DNA from: Spirochaetota bacterium
GTDB lineage: Bacteria; Spirochaetota; Leptospiria; Leptospirales; Leptospiraceae
Direction: 5' to 3'
Assembly: GCA_039028475.1 (NCBI GenBank)
Contig: JBCCIA010000013.1
Coordinates: 1-36,997 of the forward strand
Length of the DNA stretch: 36,997 nucleotides
Below, piece after piece: positions 6 through 33,806 of the stretch. Each line of letters opens with the position of its first letter. Within the stretch, counting starts at the first letter, position 1. The notes under the pieces were generated by a model. The model had not been told where the DNA came from. It searched no databases and worked only from the letters and a program-made list of their open reading frames with translations. Position numbers and translations under genes: made by a program.

Positions 6-1328
6 TTGCTAAAAAAATTAACTTTTTGGGCGAAAAAGAAAAATCGTAAACCTCTTATTCTCCGAGGTGCTCGCCAAACAGGAAAAACTACGGTTATTGC
101 TTTATTTGCAAAAGAATTCGACAATTATATCTACCTCAACCTTGAACTTACAGAAGATAAGGAAGTTTTTTCAAAGCCTTTGGCTGTACATGATTGTGTC
201 CAACTAATACTTTTAAGTAAGAATATAACTCTTAAGCCAGGTCGAACCCTCATATTTATTGATGAAATTCAAAATAGTCCGATTGCAGTTGGGCTAATGC
301 GTTACTTTTATGAATCTCTTCCCGAATACCATGTAATTGCAGCAGGTTCTTTATTAGAGATTCTTATGGAAAAAGAAAATATTAGTTTTCCTGTTGGTAG
401 AGTAGAATTTGAATTTCTTTATCCAATGAGTTTTGAAGAATTCCTACTTGCTAGTGGTAATGATACTGCAATTGGATATTACAATACAGTTCCCTGTCCA
501 GACTTTGCTATCCCTAGTCTACTCAAACTTTTCCACAACTATACGATGTTAGGCGGTATGCCAGAAATTCTCTCCCGTTACTTTGCGGGAGAAAGTATCT
601 CACAACTACAATCAGTTTATCAAAGTTTGATGTATTCTTATAGCGATGATATTAGTAAATACGCAAGTTCTCGCTCACAAGAACAAATTCTAAGATTTGC
701 AATAGAAGTTCTATCCTTTGAAGCAGGCAAGCGAATTAAATTCCAAGGTTTTGGAAATTCAAATTATCGTAGTCGTGAGATAGGGGAAGCCTTACGCATC
801 CTACAAAGAGCAATGCTGATACGGCTAGTATATCCGACCACTAATTTCATTTTACCGAGTATGGCTAATTATAAAAAAGCCCCTAAGCTACAATTTCTAG
901 ATACAGGTCTGCTAAACTACAAAGTAGGTCTACAAGCTGAATTCATTAAATATGATAGCTTACATGCATTTTATCGTGGATTGATCGCAGAGCATGTTGT
1001 TGGACAAGAACTACAGACAAACTTACAACAGGATTTACTATTCTGGACCCGAGAAGAAAAACACTCCAATGCTGAATTGGACTTCGTTATGAATATAGAA
1101 GGAAATTTATTACCCATTGAAGTCAAATCTGGCAAAGTAGGTAGGTTACGTTCATTGCATCAATTTATGGATCATTCTACTATAGCACAAGCAATACGCC
1201 TATACGATGGTAATTTAGAAATACAAAATACTTCTACCATCACAGGCAACAATTTTCAATTGCTAAATTTACCCTACTGTTTTGCTGGAAAAATAGCCGA
1301 ATACTACCAGTGGATGAATGGTATCTAA
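6..1328 (+). CDS. AAA+ ATPase, DUF4143-type ATP-binding protein. Possibly 5'-truncated by the window edge (TTG start at 6, frame open to position 1).
   Basis: Walker A GARQTGKTT at residues 21-29. Length and C-terminal region are typical of the AAA_14/DUF4143 ATPase family. No stop upstream in frame inside the window. Confidence 0.7.
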   Translation: MLKKLTFWAKKKNRKPLILRGARQTGKTTVIALFAKEFDNYIYLNLELTEDKEVFSKPLAVHDCVQLILLSKNITLKPGRTLIFIDEIQNSPIAVGLMRYFYESLPEYHVIAAGSLLEILMEKENISFPVGRVEFEFLYPMSFEEFLLASGNDTAIGYYNTVPCPDFAIPSLLKLFHNYTMLGGMPEILSRYFAGESISQLQSVYQSLMYSYSDDISKYASSRSQEQILRFAIEVLSFEAGKRIKFQGFGNSNYRSREIGEALRILQRAMLIRLVYPTTNFILPSMANYKKAPKLQFLDTGLLNYKVGLQAEFIKYDSLHAFYRGLIAEHVVGQELQTNLQQDLLFWTREEKHSNAELDFVMNIEGNLLPIEVKSGKVGRLRSLHQFMDHSTIAQAIRLYDGNLEIQNTSTITGNNFQLLNLPYCFAGKIAEYYQWMNGI

Positions 1329-2654: not shown

Positions 2655-3161
2655 TTACTCTGCTTTTTTCTGGCCGAACTTATTGGTAAAGAGATCAAAA
2701 CCCGTCGGTGTCGTAGGAGGTGGCGTATGGTTGACTCTACTGACCTTACTGCGGCGGAGAATTACATCAATTTCGATATCGGGGTCGTGCTTTCTACTGT
2801 AGCGGGCTATGGGTCTGTAGTAGATCAAATGGGTTCGCCCACTGCTATCTCGGAAACGTTTATCGGGCTTACCGATATAACTGATGACAAACGGTTCGTT
2901 GCGGTTTTGTAAGGTATCTTTTAGATCATCTCGGTTTTTGATGTTTTTCTCTACCTCTGGGTCTAGGGGAACTACTTCAACCGGATCTTCTTTGACAAAT
3001 TCCTTGGCTTGGTTGGAAACAAAAGATTTGCACTTTTGTTCATCGGAAAATGTAGCCATACAGTCTTTGTATAGCTTATCTTTATCCGCTTTTAGCTGCC
3101 TGTCAGGGTTGCTGACACATTGCTGGAATACAAAAAGGCAAAGTAGTAAAATAGTTCTCAT
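2655..3161 (-). CDS. Putative lipoprotein (hypothetical). Start chosen at MRTILLLCLFVFQQC.
   Basis: Signal-peptide-like N-terminus with Cys after a hydrophobic core. The start codon sits 2 nt downstream of the secA stop (3166-3168). Confidence 0.5.
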   Translation of the reverse strand: MRTILLLCLFVFQQCVSNPDRQLKADKDKLYKDCMATFSDEQKCKSFVSNQAKEFVKEDPVEVVPLDPEVEKNIKNRDDLKDTLQNRNEPFVISYIGKPDKRFRDSSGRTHLIYYRPIARYSRKHDPDIEIDVILRRSKVSRVNHTPPPTTPTGFDLFTNKFGQKKAE

Positions 3162-3165
3162 GATG

Positions 3166-5976
3166 TCACCTACGCTTTTTGCGTTTTTTCTTTCTTTTGG
3201 AAGCTCCACCAGCACTAGTGGTCACTTCCCTATCTTTCTTTTGGCTTACTCGGGTATATGGTTGTGCACCTGTTGCAACGGCCTCATTGAAGATATCTAC
3301 GTTGTGCACTTCTTCCCCAATAGGTATGTATTCCGTATCTTCTTCGAGAATCTTTTCTTGCCCTTCTTCCGTTAACTCAACCTTGAACAAAAAGGCTATG
3401 ATCTCTTGTTTGAAACTATCCACCATCTGATCAAAGATTTGAAAACCTTGGATTTTATACTCAATCAAAGGGTTTTTCTCGCTATAGCCAACTGTCCAAA
3501 TACCCTCTCTTAAGGTATCCATTATGTGTAAATGATCTTTCCAACGGTGGTCCAAGATATCCAGCAAAATTTGTTTCTCTAGCTGCTTCCATACATCTAA
3601 ACCAATAGCGTTTGACTTTTTCTCATAGACTGCTTTGAAGTTTTCTAGAATCAAATGGAACAGTTCGGATTGGGCATCTTTGCCTTTTTTCAATTGTTCT
3701 ACTTCGACAAACGTTGTGATATTCATGGAACCAATCCACTCATTCAAGAGTTCGGTATTCCAAGCATTCGGGTTATTCCCTTCACAGTTCGCCAATACCT
3801 GGGTTTCGATAACCTCTTCCATCCAGACATTCATGATCTCACTAATATCTTTTGTTCCCTCTAAAACATAGTTGCGTAGCTCATAGATGAACATACGTTG
3901 GCGATTCATCACATCATCGTATTCTAAAAGGTGCTTACGAATATCAAAGTTATGTGCCTCTACCCTTTTTTGGGAACGGGCAATGGCATTGGATACCATT
4001 TTGTGCTCTATTTCCTGGCCTTCTTCCATACCCAAACGCTGCATAATAGCAGAGATACGATCACTACCAAAGATCCGCATCAAATCATCTTCCAGGGAGA
4101 GGTAGAAGCGACTAGAACCAGGATCCCCTTGCCTACCAGAGCGTCCTCGCAACTGGTTGTCAATACGCCGAGATTCGTGTCTTTCCGTCCCCAAAATATG
4201 CAAACCGCCAGCTTCTAAAACGATATCATGGTTTTCTTTCCAACGCTTGGCATCGTCTAGTATCGATTTCCCTATCTTTTGCTTGGACTTAGAGGGAAAA
4301 GCAATAAGCAGCCCATCAGCAACGCTAAACTCCAAACGCTTAACTGCCAGTTTAAACTTCTGGATGCTTTCGTCGGGTTCTTCCCATTCATCCAACTCTT
4401 CTTTGTAGGTAGGAGCACCTCCCAGTACAATGTCAGTTCCCCTTCCCGCCATATTTGTTGCAATTGTAATAGACCCTGGCTTGCCGGCGTTGGCAACGAT
4501 TTCAGCCTCTTTCTCATGAAATTTGGCGTTCAACACATTATGTGGTAATCCTTCACGCCGTAACAGCATAGAAAGAACTTCCGACTTCTCGATGGAGATA
4601 GTTCCTACGAGGGCGGGTTGCTTTCTTTCCTGGCAATCTCGAATCTCTTTCACTATGGCATCAAATTTTTCTCGCTCTGTACGGTATACACGATCTGGAT
4701 GATCGAGTCTTTTCAGTTTGAGGTTAGGAGGAATGACAATTACATCGAGCTTGTATATCTTAGCAAACTCCTCTGCCTCTGTATCTGCAGTACCTGTCAT
4801 CCCCGAAAGCTTGTCGTAAATGCGGAAAAAATTTTGGAAGGTAATAGAGGCAAGCGTCTGTGATTCCCTGGCAATTGGCACACGCTCTTTGGCCTCGATA
4901 GCTTGGTGCAATCCATCCGAGTAGCGTCTCCCTTCCATCAAACGACCGGTAAACTCGTCCACAATAACGACTTCGTCCTGCTGTACTACATAATCGACGT
5001 CTTTTTTATAGAGCTTATGTGCCTTTAAGGCTTGGCTGACATGGTGGACGATCTCTGTATTTTCTGGTGAATACAAGTTTTCAATACCTAGGGCATTCTC
5101 CACACTTGCCACGCCTTTCTCGGTTAAGAGGGCATTCTTAGCCTTCTCATCGATTTCATAATCCCACTCTTTTTCCGACTCAGGCATGGGTTCTTCTCCC
5201 TTTTTCGGTTCTGGGACATCAAACTCTTCTTTGCCGTGTAAGTAGGGAATCACCTTATCTACTTTCTCATAGATGTCTGTCGTATTGTCTGTAGAACCAG
5301 AGATGATAAGCGGAGTTCTAGCTTCGTCAATCAAAATCGAATCTACCTCATCAATGATACAGTAGTAGTGTTTTCTCTGTACTTTGTGCGAGATGTGAGC
5401 CACCATATTATCACGCAGATAATCAAAACCAAACTCATTATTTGTCCCATAGGTTATATCAGACCCATAGGCAGCCTGGCGTTCTTCGTGGTCCATATCG
5501 TGTTGGATGGCTCCTATAGTAATACCCAAAAACTCATAAACAGGCCGCATCCAGTTTGCATCCCGTTTTGCCAAATAGTCATTTACTGTTACAACATGCA
5601 CACCTTTGCCTGTGAGTGCGTTGAGATAGATAGGTAGTGTCGAAGTAAGAGTCTTACCCTCTCCGGTTTTCATTTCTGCAATATTTCCCCAGTGTAGAGA
5701 GATACCACCCATAAGTTGGACATCAAAATGTCGCATTCCTAGAGTACGAATCGATGCTTCCCGTACTGTAGCAAAAGCCTCTGGCAGTATATCATCCAAA
5801 CTTTCCTTTGCTTCCAGGCGTTGTTTGAATTTATTTGTTTGTTCTTGGAGTTCACTATCGCTTAGTTTCTTAATGTCTGGCTCTAGAGCATTGATCTGCT
5901 CGACAATCGGTTGTAATCTCTTTAAGTCTCTCTCATATTTACTGCCAAAGAGGACATTCAATATCTTATTCAACAT
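3166..5976 (-). CDS. secA: Preprotein translocase ATPase SecA.
   Basis: 936 aa. N-terminus [21 protein letters not shown], and the [33 protein letters not shown] Walker A region. C-terminus is a polybasic tail [10 protein letters not shown] with no zinc-binding Cys motif. Confidence 0.95.
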
Positions 5977-25273: not shown

Positions 25274-26098
25274 CTATAACCCAATCTCATCTTGGAAACG
25301 AGACAATTGCGCAACAATATTCTTTTTCACTCGTCTTTCTTCTTCTTTGAACTTCTGGTATTCCGCAGAATCGGGCTTTTCGGCAAACTGCTTCTTTTTG
25401 TGTTCCAATTGTAGGATAGCTTCCGGTGAACGCAAAACGACTCCTGGAACTTGCAGTCCTGAGAAGTCAAAAGTAGTACTATTGTCGAGCATTTGCTGCG
25501 CGTGCTGCCTACCATAGTAAAAAACCGCACTAGCTCCCAAGAGAAATATTCCTTTGATACCATACTGTTGGATGGTATTTTGTACATGTAGGTTACATTG
25601 TAGCAACCTTTTCTGCCAATCCTCAGGAACAGAATGTTCGTGTGAGAAGGTGCAAGCCGGGTATTCTTGGAAATAAAAGCTCTTATAGTCCAAGCCAAAG
25701 ACCTTTTCCGTCATACGATTGAACAAGTCTTCGGATTCGCGTGTACGAAAAATTTGCCCACGGAATCTTTTCGCAAAAATCGGTTTATTTGGGCGGTATT
25801 CGCCAGTATAATGCAAGATGAGAATAGGAACTTTGCCATGGTGGATAAAATTACGAATGCCAGAAAGTTTTTGCGGACAACGCCTACAGGTAAAGTTGAC
25901 TTCATCTGCTTGCAAAGTTGTCTGGCGCAGTAATTGCTGTGAGACAGGTTTTTGCGTATTTGTTTTAGCAACATTCCAAGTAAAAGAAAAGTCATACGGA
26001 TTCTGTTCTTCAGGGTAGTGAAAAACAGGGACTTCTTCTTTTTCTACTACAACAGCCAATTCTTCTAAGATCGTGTGCAGTTCTTGGTAGGGATTCAT
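25274..26098 (-). CDS. Uracil-DNA glycosylase superfamily protein, divergent family-4-like.
   Basis: TCRRCPQKLSGIRNFIHHGKVPILILHYTGE resembles the family-4 N-terminal CxxC...VxGxG...imfvGEAPG region. IKGIFLLGASA matches the conserved LG..A strand. The motif-A and motif-B positions read GEYRP and RSPEAI rather than GEAPG and HPSPLL. Confidence 0.4.
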   Translation of the reverse strand: MNPYQELHTILEELAVVVEKEEVPVFHYPEEQNPYDFSFTWNVAKTNTQKPVSQQLLRQTTLQADEVNFTCRRCPQKLSGIRNFIHHGKVPILILHYTGEYRPNKPIFAKRFRGQIFRTRESEDLFNRMTEKVFGLDYKSFYFQEYPACTFSHEHSVPEDWQKRLLQCNLHVQNTIQQYGIKGIFLLGASAVFYYGRQHAQQMLDNSTTFDFSGLQVPGVVLRSPEAILQLEHKKKQFAEKPDSAEYQKFKEEERRVKKNIVAQLSRFQDEIGL

Positions 26099-27305: not shown

Positions 27306-27578
27306 TCATTCGTTCGAAGCAATGGAATAGCGAAAAGAAATAAAAAGTAAAAATACAGTAAAGAAGGTAAAAAACAACTGGTAATCGTTGTCTACACGGC
27401 TATATGCTAGGGCAGCAGAAACCACGGCCAAGAACGAGGTTAAGAGGGAAATAGTAAGATTATTCTCCCCTGCCAGTGAACGTTTCATTTGGTAGTGGAT
27501 AACGATCCAATAAATCCCAGAAGAGGCCCAAAGAAAAATACTCATAATCAAGAGGATTAGATGAAGATCCACACTCAT
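27306..27578 (-). CDS. Small hydrophobic membrane protein (hypothetical, 90 aa).
   Basis: Three hydrophobic segments. Placed 4 nt upstream of ispD in the same orientation. Confidence 0.35.
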   Translation of the reverse strand: MSVDLHLILLIMSIFLWASSGIYWIVIHYQMKRSLAGENNLTISLLTSFLAVVSAALAYSRVDNDYQLFFTFFTVFLLFISFRYSIASNE

Positions 27579-27687
27579 ATTTCCTTATATTTCCCAGGAA
27601 TCACCGACTTGTCAATCTCTTTCAAAAAAATATACATATACCGACCGCCTTTTTAAGGGACAGACACATACCACAAATCATAAAATT

Positions 27688-27707
27688 ACTTAAAATTTTT
27701 GTAGTAT
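27688..27707. promoter_or_regulatory. Imperfect 20-bp palindrome TACTTAAAATTTTTGTAGTA about 45 nt upstream of the S24-peptidase gene. Candidate operator.
   Basis: 14 of 20 positions are self-complementary (TACT...AGTA arms around an A4T5 core). Located in the divergent promoter region. Confidence 0.2.
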
Positions 27708-27749
27708 TTTTCTTGCTTTTCAGCTTCTCTTTTACAAAATGGTCTCATT

Positions 27750-28142
27750 ATGGAATTGCCAATTTTCTCTGTCAGTGTTTTAGCTAATAATCCTTCTCCT
27801 ATACAATTTGGTTCCAGCAATTGCCTAAATATAGACAACTACCTGGTACAGAATAAGGAGCATACGTTTTTAATGCGAGTCCGTGGTGACTCCATGTCGC
27901 AAGTAAGCGTGTTTCACGATGATTTGCTTGTCGTTGATTGCTCTTTAAAACCGAGAAGCAAAGACTTGATTGTCGCTGTAGCAAATCGAGAATTCATTCT
28001 TAGAAGATTTATCCGAAAAAAAAATAAATCCTATTTGGAAAACGGAAAAACCGAAAATCCACCTATCGAATATGATAGCAAACAAGGAATCAACATTTGG
28101 GGTGTTGTTACTCATGTTGTCCACAAATCGCGTACGGGCTAA
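27750..28142 (+). CDS. S24 peptidase, LexA C-terminal / UmuD-like autoprotease-domain protein. No HTH domain.
   Basis: LMRVRGDSMS has the Ser of the Ser-Lys dyad in a GDSM context. DDLLVVD and LIVAVANREFILRRF match the LexA/UmuD motifs. Only 130 aa, with no N-terminal DNA-binding domain. Confidence 0.7.
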   Translation: MELPIFSVSVLANNPSPIQFGSSNCLNIDNYLVQNKEHTFLMRVRGDSMSQVSVFHDDLLVVDCSLKPRSKDLIVAVANREFILRRFIRKKNKSYLENGKTENPPIEYDSKQGINIWGVVTHVVHKSRTG

Positions 28143-28175
28143 GCTTTCCTTGCGATGTTGATGACTCTCTCTTTG

Positions 28176-28204
28176 CCGGGGGCTTGCGCCCCCGGTTTTT
28201 TTTT
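28176..28204 (+). terminator. Rho-independent terminator: CCGGGGGC-ttgc-GCCCCCGG followed by T9.
   Basis: 8-bp GC-rich stem, 4-nt loop, and nine consecutive T. Lies 34 nt after the S24 gene stop. Confidence 0.8.
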
Positions 28205-28292
28205 GTCTTTGGACTCAAATTAAAATAGCAAAAAACGCTACATTTTGAAGAAATTAATATAGCATTTTTTACTATAATTATTCATATAATTC

Positions 28293-28351: not shown

Positions 28352-28978
28352 ATGATGAGAACAATACTAGGTTTATCAGTTATTTTTTTCACGATAGATG
28401 TCTTTGCAGGGGCACTTCAATTCTATCGTATGCTAAAAATTGGCCAAAAACAAAGTGACATGAGCTACTTTGCAGAAAAGCACCTACGGTACAATGGAAA
28501 ATACGGAGATATGCAACAGTACCTATACGATGCAGACCACGCAATGATCCGCCTATTGTCAAAAAACAAAAAACTCCATACCTATCAAGTTATCCACTAC
28601 TACCCACTAGAAAAAAACTGGGAGGGTTTCTTCTTCGATAAAATGGAAAACTTGCATATGCGCTATGGAACTCCTGATCGGGTAGGTTTTCGCCAAGCCT
28701 TATGGAAAAAGCAGCAAGGAAAACAAAACATCTACGTGCAATTTAGTACTATCAAAGCAAGTGATTTTTTTCCAGTGGAAGCGAAGTCTTCTGGAGTCGT
28801 ATCTATTGTAACAGTTTCTGCAGAGGTACATCCGAGTTATTTTCGTTTGGGGGCTGAAGACTTTTGTAAAACCAAGCAAGAAAAATACGAAAAGTGCTCT
28901 CCAGAAGGAACTGGAGAAATCATTGCACGACGATCTGGTAACACGAGCGACTTAGAATTTCTTACTCATTATAGATAA
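28352..28978 (+). CDS. Secreted hypothetical protein (208 aa).
   Basis: N-terminal signal peptide MMRTILGLSVIFFTIDVFAGA. No family recognised. Confidence 0.45.
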   Translation: MMRTILGLSVIFFTIDVFAGALQFYRMLKIGQKQSDMSYFAEKHLRYNGKYGDMQQYLYDADHAMIRLLSKNKKLHTYQVIHYYPLEKNWEGFFFDKMENLHMRYGTPDRVGFRQALWKKQQGKQNIYVQFSTIKASDFFPVEAKSSGVVSIVTVSAEVHPSYFRLGAEDFCKTKQEKYEKCSPEGTGEIIARRSGNTSDLEFLTHYR

Positions 28979-32270: not shown

Positions 32271-33806
32271 CTATTCTTTGACCTCTTCTTGCAAATAAGC
32301 AGAGATATTCCTATTTGCAAACTCAACACCCACAAGATAGATCTGCTTACCGCTTCCTAGATATTTCTCATAATATTTTTTTTCTTTGATCTGCTGCAAG
32401 GCTTCTTCTTTGCTACCGTTGATTTTGAATTCAAAAATATAGATGTGTTTGTCAACGATAACCGCATCGATTCTACCAAGATTGGTTTTCACTTCCGCTT
32501 GGATTCTCATCCCGATTAGAGTGAATAGCAAATAAAATATGGTTTGGTAGTATTTTTCATGTGCTAGGTGTAAATCATAGTCAATGTTTAGAAAAACCTT
32601 ACGTATATGTTCCATGCAACTTTCTATATCTCCATCGTTTAAAGAATCAATAATATCAAATAGAATAGAGTCTGAGTATTCTCGTTTGTAGAGTTTTTTC
32701 GTGAGATAGGTCAGAAATGCCATTTTCACTTCATAATTGGGATAGTCCAATTCGTAGAGCATTCGTTCATGATTGTAAGCTTTGATGGTCAAATATCCAG
32801 TTTGTTGCAACAGAGCGATGAGACTAAGATCTTCTACCTCATAAGAAGAAAACGATAACTCACTCACCTTTAGAGGGATATCCATTACATCATATTGTTT
32901 TTGCAGCAATAGATTTACTAAAAAACTTGGAGTTCCTGTTTCAAACCAATGGTGTTGGAACTTTTGCGAATCAAAAAGCAATAGTGTAGAGAATGGGTTA
33001 TAAACCATTGTTCCATCTGAAGAAAAACGATAGCCGTTGTACCAATGACGGATTTTAGCAATGATTGTATCACCAAATAGCTTTTCTTTTGTTTGTAGCT
33101 TTTGGATGTAATCAGCAAATGAGTCGATCAGTTCTTCTTCGGTAATTCCCAGCAAAGAAGAATATTCGTCTCGAAGGGTAATGTCTGCAAGATGGTTCAG
33201 GTTGCTAAACACCCCGGCTTTTGAAAATTTACTCACTCCGGTGAGAAGCAAAAAGCGAATATGCTCATCATTGCCCTTTAAAACAGTAAAGAACCCCTTC
33301 ATCACCTCTCGCATCTCAATCGCCAACTCTGTATTGCCAAGATGATCGATGATAGGTTTGTCATATTCATCGATGAGGATTGCAACTTGTTCTGCTTCAC
33401 TCAGTTTCAGGATAAGTTCTTGGAATTTAGAGTAATAGTCTGTTTCTTTTAATTCGACATTGTAGTTTTCAGCAATTATATCAATTTCTTTTGCAAGAAA
33501 TCGTACCAAAGCCTCTGGAGTTTTTGCCTTTTGTTTACTAAAATCAAGACGAATGACTGGGTGCTGTTTCCAAGCAAACTCAGCATTGTATACCCATAGA
33601 CCCTTAAATAGCTCTTTATTGCCCCGAAATAGCTCCTCTAAAGTGGATATCAGTAAGCTCTTTCCAAATCGACGTGGACGAGATAGGAAATAGGCTCCTT
33701 TGGGGTATTTGATCAGGTCATAGATATTTTGAGTTTTATCTACATAGAGGTAATTGCCTTCTATCATCTGTCGAAATGTTTGGATGCCTATCGATAGTGG
33801 TTGCAT
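32271..33806 (-). CDS. Predicted AAA-ATPase (PF09820-like) fused to a C-terminal PD-(D/E)XK nuclease-like domain (PF08011-like).
   Basis: 511 aa. N-terminal ...YVDKTQNIYDLIKYPKGAYFLSRPRRFGKSLLISTLEELF is the hallmark opening of the predicted AAA-ATPase family. The C-terminal ...GRIDAVIVDKHIYIFEFK... is PD-(D/E)XK-like. Confidence 0.65.
   Translation of the reverse strand: MQPLSIGIQTFRQMIEGNYLYVDKTQNIYDLIKYPKGAYFLSRPRRFGKSLLISTLEELFRGNKELFKGLWVYNAEFAWKQHPVIRLDFSKQKAKTPEALVRFLAKEIDIIAENYNVELKETDYYSKFQELILKLSEAEQVAILIDEYDKPIIDHLGNTELAIEMREVMKGFFTVLKGNDEHIRFLLLTGVSKFSKAGVFSNLNHLADITLRDEYSSLLGITEEELIDSFADYIQKLQTKEKLFGDTIIAKIRHWYNGYRFSSDGTMVYNPFSTLLLFDSQKFQHHWFETGTPSFLVNLLLQKQYDVMDIPLKVSELSFSSYEVEDLSLIALLQQTGYLTIKAYNHERMLYELDYPNYEVKMAFLTYLTKKLYKREYSDSILFDIIDSLNDGDIESCMEHIRKVFLNIDYDLHLAHEKYYQTIFYLLFTLIGMRIQAEVKTNLGRIDAVIVDKHIYIFEFKINGSKEEALQQIKEKKYYEKYLGSGKQIYLVGVEFANRNISAYLQEEVKE

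Follow-up and report, generated by a model that had tools for sequence, protein, structure and literature searches.

A UmuD-derived S24-domain protein in a Spirochaetota metagenome-assembled genome represents a small clade with apparent loss of the self-cleavage machinery

A gene encoding a 130-amino-acid protein with an S24 peptidase domain was analysed in the complete 36,997-bp contig JBCCIA010000013.1 of a Spirochaetota metagenome-assembled genome (hereafter the window). Peptidase_S24 (PF00717) was the sole Pfam domain of the protein and covered residues 12-120 (E-value 2.8e-16; 59.7 bits against a cutoff of 23.3), and the protein has no residues upstream of the S24 domain that could form a winged-helix DNA-binding domain. 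The top NCBIfam model was that of the DNA polymerase V (Pol V) autoproteolytic subunit UmuD (NF007621), with a sub-threshold score of 100.8 bits against a cutoff of 110, while the LexA model (TIGR00498) reached 48.9 bits (cutoff 110.95) over model positions 100-201 only and the HumD model (NF051876) remained at 50.4 bits, below its cutoff of 120. An AlphaFold2 model built on 89 homologues had a mean predicted local distance difference test (pLDDT) score of 84.7, with values above 90 in the core from about residue 30 onward and an uncertain conformation for the first 20 residues. The closest solved structure to this model was E. coli UmuD’ (1ay9; template modelling score 0.84 on the target, root-mean-square deviation 1.9 Å), followed by the C-terminal domains of LexA and lambda CI, and the profile match, the predicted core and these structural matches agree in assigning the protein to the S24 fold. 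On the basis of the Pfam result, the NCBIfam ranking and the structural matches, the protein is an S24 domain of the UmuD lineage without a DNA-binding domain, in agreement with the stand-alone S24 protein of a preliminary description made from the sequence. The features of the locus are listed in Table 1.

Table 1. Position of the S24 gene, its functional residues, its putative regulatory elements and other features of the window.
Feature	Position	Strand	Description
UmuD-derived S24-domain protein, coding sequence	27750..28142	+	130 aa, stop codon included in the coordinates; open reading frame list, Pfam, NCBIfam, AlphaFold2
Ala12-Asn13 codons	27783..27788	+	Position of the scissile bond, Cys24-Gly25 in UmuD and Ala-Gly in LexA; E. 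coli UmuD alignments
Ser48 codon	27891..27893	+	TCC; equivalent to the UmuD nucleophile Ser60; alignments
Arg85 codon	28002..28004	+	AGA; position of the UmuD general base Lys97; alignments
Sigma-70-like promoter candidate	27657..27686	+	GGGACA-18-TAAAAT; weak, 9/12 in consensus scan; pattern match only
Imperfect 20-bp palindrome	27687..27706	.	TACTTAAAATTTTTGTAGTA; candidate operator; 7/10 positions complementary
Alternative -35-like hexamer	27713-27718		TTGCTT; by eye
Conserved 15-mer of the 3’ untranslated region	28157..28171	+	GTTGATGACTCTCTC; just 5’ of the terminator; predicted single-stranded
Intrinsic terminator	28175..28205	+	Hairpin 28175-28196, 9-bp stem with 8 GC pairs, 4-nt loop, T-run
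Upstream neighbour	27306-27578	-	90 aa, hydrophobic segments; no Pfam or NCBIfam match
Downstream neighbour	28352-28978	+	208 aa, signal-peptide-like N-terminus; no Pfam or NCBIfam match
Open reading frame between priA and the haem-binding gene	25274-26098	-	274 aa; no Pfam or NCBIfam match
AAA_14 + DUF4143 ATPase	6-1328	+	PADLOC candidate family PDC-S01, E-value 5e-165
Bacterial MVP-like protein	11240-13723	+	827 aa; MVP_shoulder (84 bits), Vault_3, SPFH/Band 7
Predicted AAA-ATPase_like protein	32271-33806	-	C-terminal PD-(D/E)XK nuclease (PDDEXK_9); no PADLOC match

UmuD is the standard example of a function switched by RecA-stimulated self-cleavage, and the residues involved were therefore located in the window protein. 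Alignment with phmmer to the E. coli UmuD structures paired Ser48 of the GDSM motif with Ser60, and the first arginine of the motif FILRRF (Arg85) with Lys97, in a column that holds alanine in the non-cleavable K97A chain 8gmt_B and lysine in 1umu. Among 135 representative homologues aligned with MAFFT, this column was occupied by lysine in 118 sequences and by arginine in 14, while in a second set lysine was present in all 117 sequences from outside the clade described below. The retained serine and the substitution of the catalytic lysine by arginine had both been proposed beforehand, and both were borne out: no alignment placed a lysine at Arg85, the outcome named in advance as refuting the substitution. 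The closest orthologue (locus L005) also has arginine at this column, encoded by a different codon (AGG), which indicates that the change is real and not a sequencing error. The dyad is thus represented by a serine and an arginine instead of a serine and a lysine. The bond to be cleaved is altered as well, a change absent from the preliminary description: the pair Ala12-Asn13 stands in place of Ala/Cys-Gly, and the P1’ glycine that it lacks was present in 123 of the 135 and 116 of the 117 relatives in the two alignments. Substitution of the glycine at the scissile bond abolishes cleavage of LexA, and LexA structures carrying Gly85Asp or Gly91Asp, which we take to be non-cleavable mutants, appear among the sequence and structure matches.

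Searches with the single sequence and with a clade profile against a collection of 5.8 billion proteins, together with an exhaustive search of 1.84 billion cluster representatives and searches of reference genomes and metagenomes, recovered a clade of four proteins in total, all of 128-130 amino acids and all beginning with MELPIFS. On a profile built from the four they scored 222-245 bits, and the next-ranked protein reached 123 bits. At the scissile pair, the serine motif and the lysine position, respectively, the window protein (P0001) reads AN, GDSM and R; P0002 (69% identical) reads DN, GDLL and R; P0003 (56% identical, from the Leptospiraceae metagenome-assembled genome GCA_024233835.1) reads EG, GNAM and K; and P0004 (50% identical) reads SG, GDAT and K. 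Every member therefore retains at most one of the three cleavage features, the losses having arisen through different substitutions, and the nucleophilic serine is replaced by leucine or alanine in the three other members. By comparison, AG (CG in one sequence), GxSM and K were retained in all 116 of the next-best relatives that include the cleavage site, and AG or CG, GxSM and K in all 38 relatives from reference genomes. Judged by these residues, the self-cleavage machinery is lost across the clade, and scattered losses of this kind are expected once cleavage had become dispensable in the clade ancestor. Among the roles suggested in the preliminary description, that of a cleavage-deficient UmuD-like protein agrees with the missing lysine and P1’ glycine and with the clade-wide pattern of loss set against the 116 intact relatives. 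A regulatory decoy, another role proposed there, is conceivable.

Since synonymous sites were saturated in every pair of the four genes, the proportions of nonsynonymous (pN) and synonymous (pS) differences were compared in place of dN/dS. Pairwise pN was 0.20-0.36, with a saturated pS of 0.79-0.96, and 46 columns were invariant among the four orthologues, including M1-S7 and the motif IWGVVTH. The clade is under purifying selection, and the low pN relative to saturated pS, taken together with the invariant columns, indicates that the protein has been selected while its proteolysis has not. The N-terminal arm has also diverged. In place of the family consensus AGFPSPAxD, which was looked for as (A/C)GFPSPAxD, the four members read NNPSPIQF, NFPSPIQF, GMNSPVDV and GIGSPNAV, with only S16-P17 invariant. 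The window protein begins at about residue 13-14 of E. coli UmuD, and its isoelectric point (pI) is 9.2, within the 8.8-9.2 of the clade, as compared to a family median of 5.9 and to 4.5 for E. coli UmuD; this basic charge shift is consistent with an altered partner.

The preliminary description had also reported that no UmuC partner is adjacent, and this holds for the whole contig. A tblastn search with UmuC and DinB from the control locus L006 detected no Y-family polymerase in the 36,997-bp contig or in loci L001-L005. For the three orthologues (L001, L004 and L005) the search covered up to 8 kb per side, shortened by contig ends to about 0.1 kb on the downstream side in L005 and to about 6.7 kb on the upstream side in L004, and a Pfam scan of all large open reading frames of the window likewise detected none. 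The control gave the expected picture: in the nearest canonical relative, a Fibrobacterales protein with 43% identity, the gene overlaps umuC, and in about 30 of the 38 relatives from reference genomes umuC follows after a short gap (approximately 10-860 bp). For five canonical homologues from reference genomes of Alpha- and Gammaproteobacteria, Legionellales and Xenophilus (L011, L012, L013, L036, and L045; AG, GDSM or GWSM, and K), no UmuC was found within the 5-10 kb fetched per side, and orphan status is thus also seen among apparently cleavable UmuD proteins.

Genomic context analyses revealed that the gene lies in a housekeeping neighbourhood with PriA, IspD, SecA and MltG/YceG, between the small membrane protein and the signal-peptide-like protein recognised earlier (Table 1). 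The order PriA, 274-amino-acid unknown protein, haem-binding protein, IspD, small membrane protein and S24 gene is syntenic with L005, where the gene at the position of the 274-amino-acid open reading frame encodes 290 amino acids. In L001, from a Leptospiraceae metagenome-assembled genome, the orthologue is located between a caspase-like protein and recN (TIGR00634, 482 bits), and in L004 between a Cas6-like protein and the end of a ribosomal-protein cluster. The upstream neighbour in L001 is a Peptidase_C14 protein of 803 amino acids, and recN follows directly downstream on the same strand, with the orthologue’s own terminator in between (L001 8541-10247). The neighbours are therefore wholly different between window/L005, L001 and L004, while a single-gene layout ending in a hairpin and T-run is apparent in every locus.

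The strong terminator ascribed to the gene is present (fold energy -21.5 kcal/mol), and by visual inspection a hairpin followed by a T-run also lies 3’ of the gene in L005, L001 and L004. Likewise confirmed was the 20-bp imperfect palindrome in the promoter region, TACTTAAAATTTTTGTAGTA. It is the only exact match to TACT-N12-AGTA in the window, where about one is expected by chance, and there are 16 one-mismatch matches against 14.5 expected; with counts so near chance the window palindrome is not significant alone, whereas its recurrence in orthologous promoters is. In each of the four orthologues the same 20-mer frame, with no more than one mismatch in the outer tetranucleotides, precedes the start codon by 6-43 nt (an exact match in L004, a single mismatch in L005 and in L001). 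A lack of conservation of the palindrome, named in advance as a refuting outcome, was thus not observed. The joint chance of this occurrence in the three other loci, two of which are non-syntenic with the window, was approximately 5e-5 as estimated from shuffled upstream regions. The half-site consensus TACTAW differs by one symmetric base from the LexA box of gammaproteobacteria; in phage P7, for comparison, the site annotated as the LexA box of humD is TACTGTATAAATGAACAGTA. The palindrome is a likely candidate for the operator of a DNA-damage-type repressor. The sigma-70-like promoter candidate ends immediately 5’ of it, and the alternative -35-like hexamer TTGCTT corresponds to TTGACT in L005 and to TTGACA in L001. 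When the promoter was inspected by eye for the Leptospira LexA boxes, neither was present; the segments TTTTGTA and TACAAAA do lie there, but at a distance of 28 nt that departs from the published spacing.

In L004, a further exact match to TACT-N12-AGTA, TACTATTTTTTTATTTAGTA, precedes a gene for a HIRAN-domain protein (2858-3268). This match partly coincides with a copy containing one mismatch (2771-2805), and the extended -10 element TGGTATAAT follows about 30-50 nt downstream of it. No other exact copy besides this one and that of the orthologue occurs within 15 kb in this locus, and the HIRAN gene stands alone. HIRAN is a DNA-damage-associated domain, and the arrangement suggests that the UmuD-like gene and the solitary HIRAN gene belong to one small regulon. 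Before recN in L001, the palindrome was matched with two mismatches at best, which gives no evidence of co-regulation of recN.

Given the loss of the cleavage machinery and the lack of an adjacent polymerase gene, the protein most likely acts by binding partners. The balance of the evidence leans slightly towards a UmuD-derived protein that does not cleave itself and functions by binding only, with partners in replication or damage tolerance and under a damage-type operator. Such a protein would be made short from the outset, as a natural counterpart of the engineered truncated, non-cleavable UmuD variants, and would bind replication or damage-tolerance proteins non-enzymatically, presumably as a UmuD-type dimer. 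By analogy, the candidate partners would be those of E. coli UmuD, which binds Pol IV/DinB, the alpha subunit of Pol III, the beta clamp and RecA filaments (PMC5342242, PMC3384344, PMC6511836). The truncated E. coli variant UmuD 18 is not cleaved, continues to confer ultraviolet resistance and partly mimics UmuD’ (PMC5342242). The protein of the window would dispense with both the RecA-triggered proteolytic switch and a dedicated UmuC encoded alongside, and would modulate replication, translesion synthesis or the activated RecA filament (RecA*). Its gene would be transcribed singly from its own promoter, with the palindrome probably serving as operator of a DNA-damage-type repressor. The link to DNA damage is probable on account of the recN adjacency in L001, the palindrome in the four promoters and the exact copy before the HIRAN gene.

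Several points weigh against this interpretation. Dimerisation, partner proteins and damage-inducible expression are elements that we infer, the neighbourhood evidence from recN and HIRAN comes from one genome each, and the clade consists of four members only, all metagenomic and none from a cultured organism. The search for umuC covered the 37-kb contig, and the gene may lie elsewhere in the genome. The right arm of the palindrome resembles a -10 hexamer (TGTAGT in the window and TATAGT in the orthologues) and could simply be one. Ser48 is intact, and LexA with Lys156 changed to arginine reportedly keeps some cleavage at very high pH, so that residual activity may formally be possible. The palindrome also matches neither of the experimentally established Leptospira LexA boxes, TTTGN5CAAA and TTGTAN10TACAA (PMC3789691).

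Of the competing explanations, that of a split Pol V, in which the protein is a pre-activated UmuD’-like subunit of a UmuC encoded elsewhere, already short and in no need of cleavage, is the strongest and is nevertheless unlikely. It draws on the short Lys-to-Arg homologues P0115 and P0055, which are found directly upstream of umuC and show that broken-dyad UmuD-like proteins can be Pol V subunits, and on HumD of phages P1 and P7, which is stand-alone and of UmuD’ length, has its own LexA box and no adjacent polymerase gene, and is said to make use of the host UmuC. Against it, no Y-family polymerase was present in the DNA fetched at four independent loci, the clade has a basic pI in contrast to the acidic family, and 12 extra N-terminal residues precede the position at which UmuD’ has a free Gly25. 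The arm motif AGFPSPAxD is moreover degraded in the clade, and in UmuD’ it is this arm that inserts into UmuC (PMC12926913). A decoy of the RecA filament, that is, a non-cleavable mimic in the RecA* groove that weakens or slows down SOS induction or recombination dependent on RecA, appears less probable still. The core fold that docks to RecA is retained, with UmuD-RecA and LexA-RecA complexes (8gmt, 8gms) among the structural matches, all clade members are non-cleavable as judged from sequence, and the recN adjacency seen in one genome and the damage-type operator candidate would suit a feedback regulator; nothing, however, separates a decoy from other binding roles, and RecA binding alone leaves the strict conservation of MELPIFS and the basic face unexplained.

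Activity as a protease through a Ser48-Arg85 pair, acting on itself or on another substrate, is very improbable. Ser48 and GDSM are intact in the window protein and arginine is a conservative substitute for lysine, found in 14 of the 135 homologues, but the pKa of arginine lies far above that of a lysine general base, the P1’ glycine is an asparagine, and three orthologues carry leucine or alanine for the serine, which argues that catalysis is not the trait selected in the clade. The preliminary description had further considered a component of a defence or stress module, and an anti-phage defence or stress function exercised together with the neighbours must now be regarded as highly improbable. 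S24 domains do occur in some defence-linked regulators, a Peptidase_C14 protein lies upstream in L001 and a Cas6-like protein in L004, and a PDC-S01 candidate defence ATPase is encoded 26 kb away in the same contig; PADLOC, however, returned no match for the S24 protein or its two neighbours, the neighbourhood is not conserved between orthologues and is of housekeeping type in the window, and each locus has its own promoter and terminator. Equally improbable is a decaying, functionless umuD remnant. The scattered loss of catalytic residues and the absence of UmuC could be read in this way, whereas the four open reading frames are intact and share length and start, pN/pS is well below 1, 46 residues are invariant, and the promoter element and terminators are conserved. 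Pseudogene status was rejected on account of the pN values relative to saturated pS.

A more specific version of the binding-only interpretation is advanced tentatively and is itself doubtful: a free-standing, damage-induced polymerase manager or RecA-filament modulator, maintained in a lineage of spirochaetes related to Leptospira, that has abandoned both proteolysis and Pol V and is governed by an operator, TACTAW-N8-WTAGTA, shared with the HIRAN gene and possibly with recN. If true, the non-catalytic checkpoint and manager functions of uncleaved E. coli UmuD would be selectable on their own, and TACTAW-N8-WTAGTA would be a previously undescribed SOS-type operator. Uncleaved E. coli UmuD acts in a checkpoint, restrains DinB and displaces Pol III alpha from the clamp, roles that are hard to separate from the one in Pol V, and a natural, uncleavable lineage without UmuC would give a clean system for such binding-only functions. 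The clade would also show a route from autoprotease to pseudo-enzyme. The impact is limited by the size of the clade, which is tiny and known from metagenomes only.

Comparison with known systems places the protein next to E. coli UmuD/UmuD’, with which it shares the fold, the best family model, GDSM, the C-terminal strand and a flexible N-terminal arm of low model confidence. It differs in having arginine for Lys97, Ala-Asn for Cys24-Gly25, an N-terminus shorter by 12 residues, a pI of 9.2 against 4.5, a score below the NCBIfam cutoff and no adjacent umuC. The protein is descended from UmuD and would work like it, and its dyad, scissile bond, arm and family score, as well as its operon linkage in the DNA covered, depart from those of an active autopeptidase and Pol V subunit. 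The engineered variants UmuD S60A, K97A, UmuD 18 and UmuD 3A are likewise uncleavable UmuD proteins whose arms are shortened or released, and the N-terminus of the window protein falls between the truncations UmuD 8 and UmuD 18; those variants are, however, laboratory constructs tested with UmuC, while the lineage of the window protein is natural, selected and without a linked UmuC. HumD of P1/P7 (129 amino acids, 33% identical to the query) is similar in being stand-alone, with no adjacent polymerase gene and with a 20-bp TACT...AGTA palindrome upstream that is annotated as a LexA site. In contrast to the window protein, HumD is phage-borne, starts with MGFPSPA, the N-terminus of UmuD’, and keeps the arm motif, the serine and the lysine, whereas the query has 12 extra N-terminal residues and less than half of the score set as the HumD cutoff. 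With LexA the protein has the S24 C-terminal domain in common and lacks the N-terminal winged-helix domain; it is neither HumD nor LexA. Acinetobacter UmuDAb offers a parallel in that the UmuD lineage was recruited beyond the classical role of Pol V subunit (PMC4807011, PMC11332147), but UmuDAb self-cleaves and depends for DNA binding on an extended N-terminal domain, whereas the window protein is shorter at its N-terminus, lacks a DNA-binding domain and has a cleavage apparatus that is disabled. No natural catalytically dead or orphan UmuD homologue was described in the literature searched. What is distinctive here is the combination of clade-wide cleavage decay, loss of the arm motif, basic pI and orphan position in four contexts.

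Homologues with a broken dyad are not confined to this clade. In the exhaustive search, the serine or the lysine was lost in 22 of the 135 representative homologues, and the contigs of four of them (P0055, P0115, P0064, and P0019) were inspected. P0115 (123 amino acids) and P0055 (128 amino acids) resemble the window protein in length and in having arginine for lysine with the serine kept. They differ from it in adjoining umuC, in being 35-38% identical and outside the clade and, for P0055, in retaining the AG site and the arm motif. As these two proteins adjoin umuC, the Lys-to-Arg change alone is neither unique nor incompatible with Pol V. P0064 (TK, GDLL, and R; L046, 3553-5501) is solitary and is followed by a second S24 protein and a 3’-5’ exonuclease, with no Y-family polymerase in about 3.5 kb upstream and 6 kb downstream, and no polymerase was found on the short contig of P0019. 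The second S24 protein of L046 has 173 amino acids and scores 108.7 bits with the UmuD model, and the exonuclease (DNA_pol_A_exo1) has 206 amino acids. Broken-dyad UmuD homologues thus recur in metagenomes, where automatic labels name them ‘S24 family peptidase’ or ‘DNA polymerase V’. Several of the top-scoring representatives, with 220-300 amino acids (P0009-P0013, P0015, P0017, P0021, and others), were matched by the query in two separate stretches and are apparent tandem duplications of the UmuD-like S24 domain in one polypeptide.

The 3’ untranslated region contains the 15-mer GTTGATGACTCTCTC, which is identical in L005 (5074-5088) despite saturated synonymous sites. Minimum-free-energy folding of the window and L005 sequences leaves it unpaired in both, and the terminator stems of the two loci differ in sequence. 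A search of the window, this conserved region included, returned no Rfam match at gathering thresholds. The layout of the 15-mer and terminator resembles the seed-plus-terminator arrangement of a small RNA derived from a 3’ untranslated region. Elsewhere in the window are encoded the PDC-S01 ATPase, the predicted ATPase with a C-terminal nuclease domain and a bacterial protein resembling MVP (Table 1).

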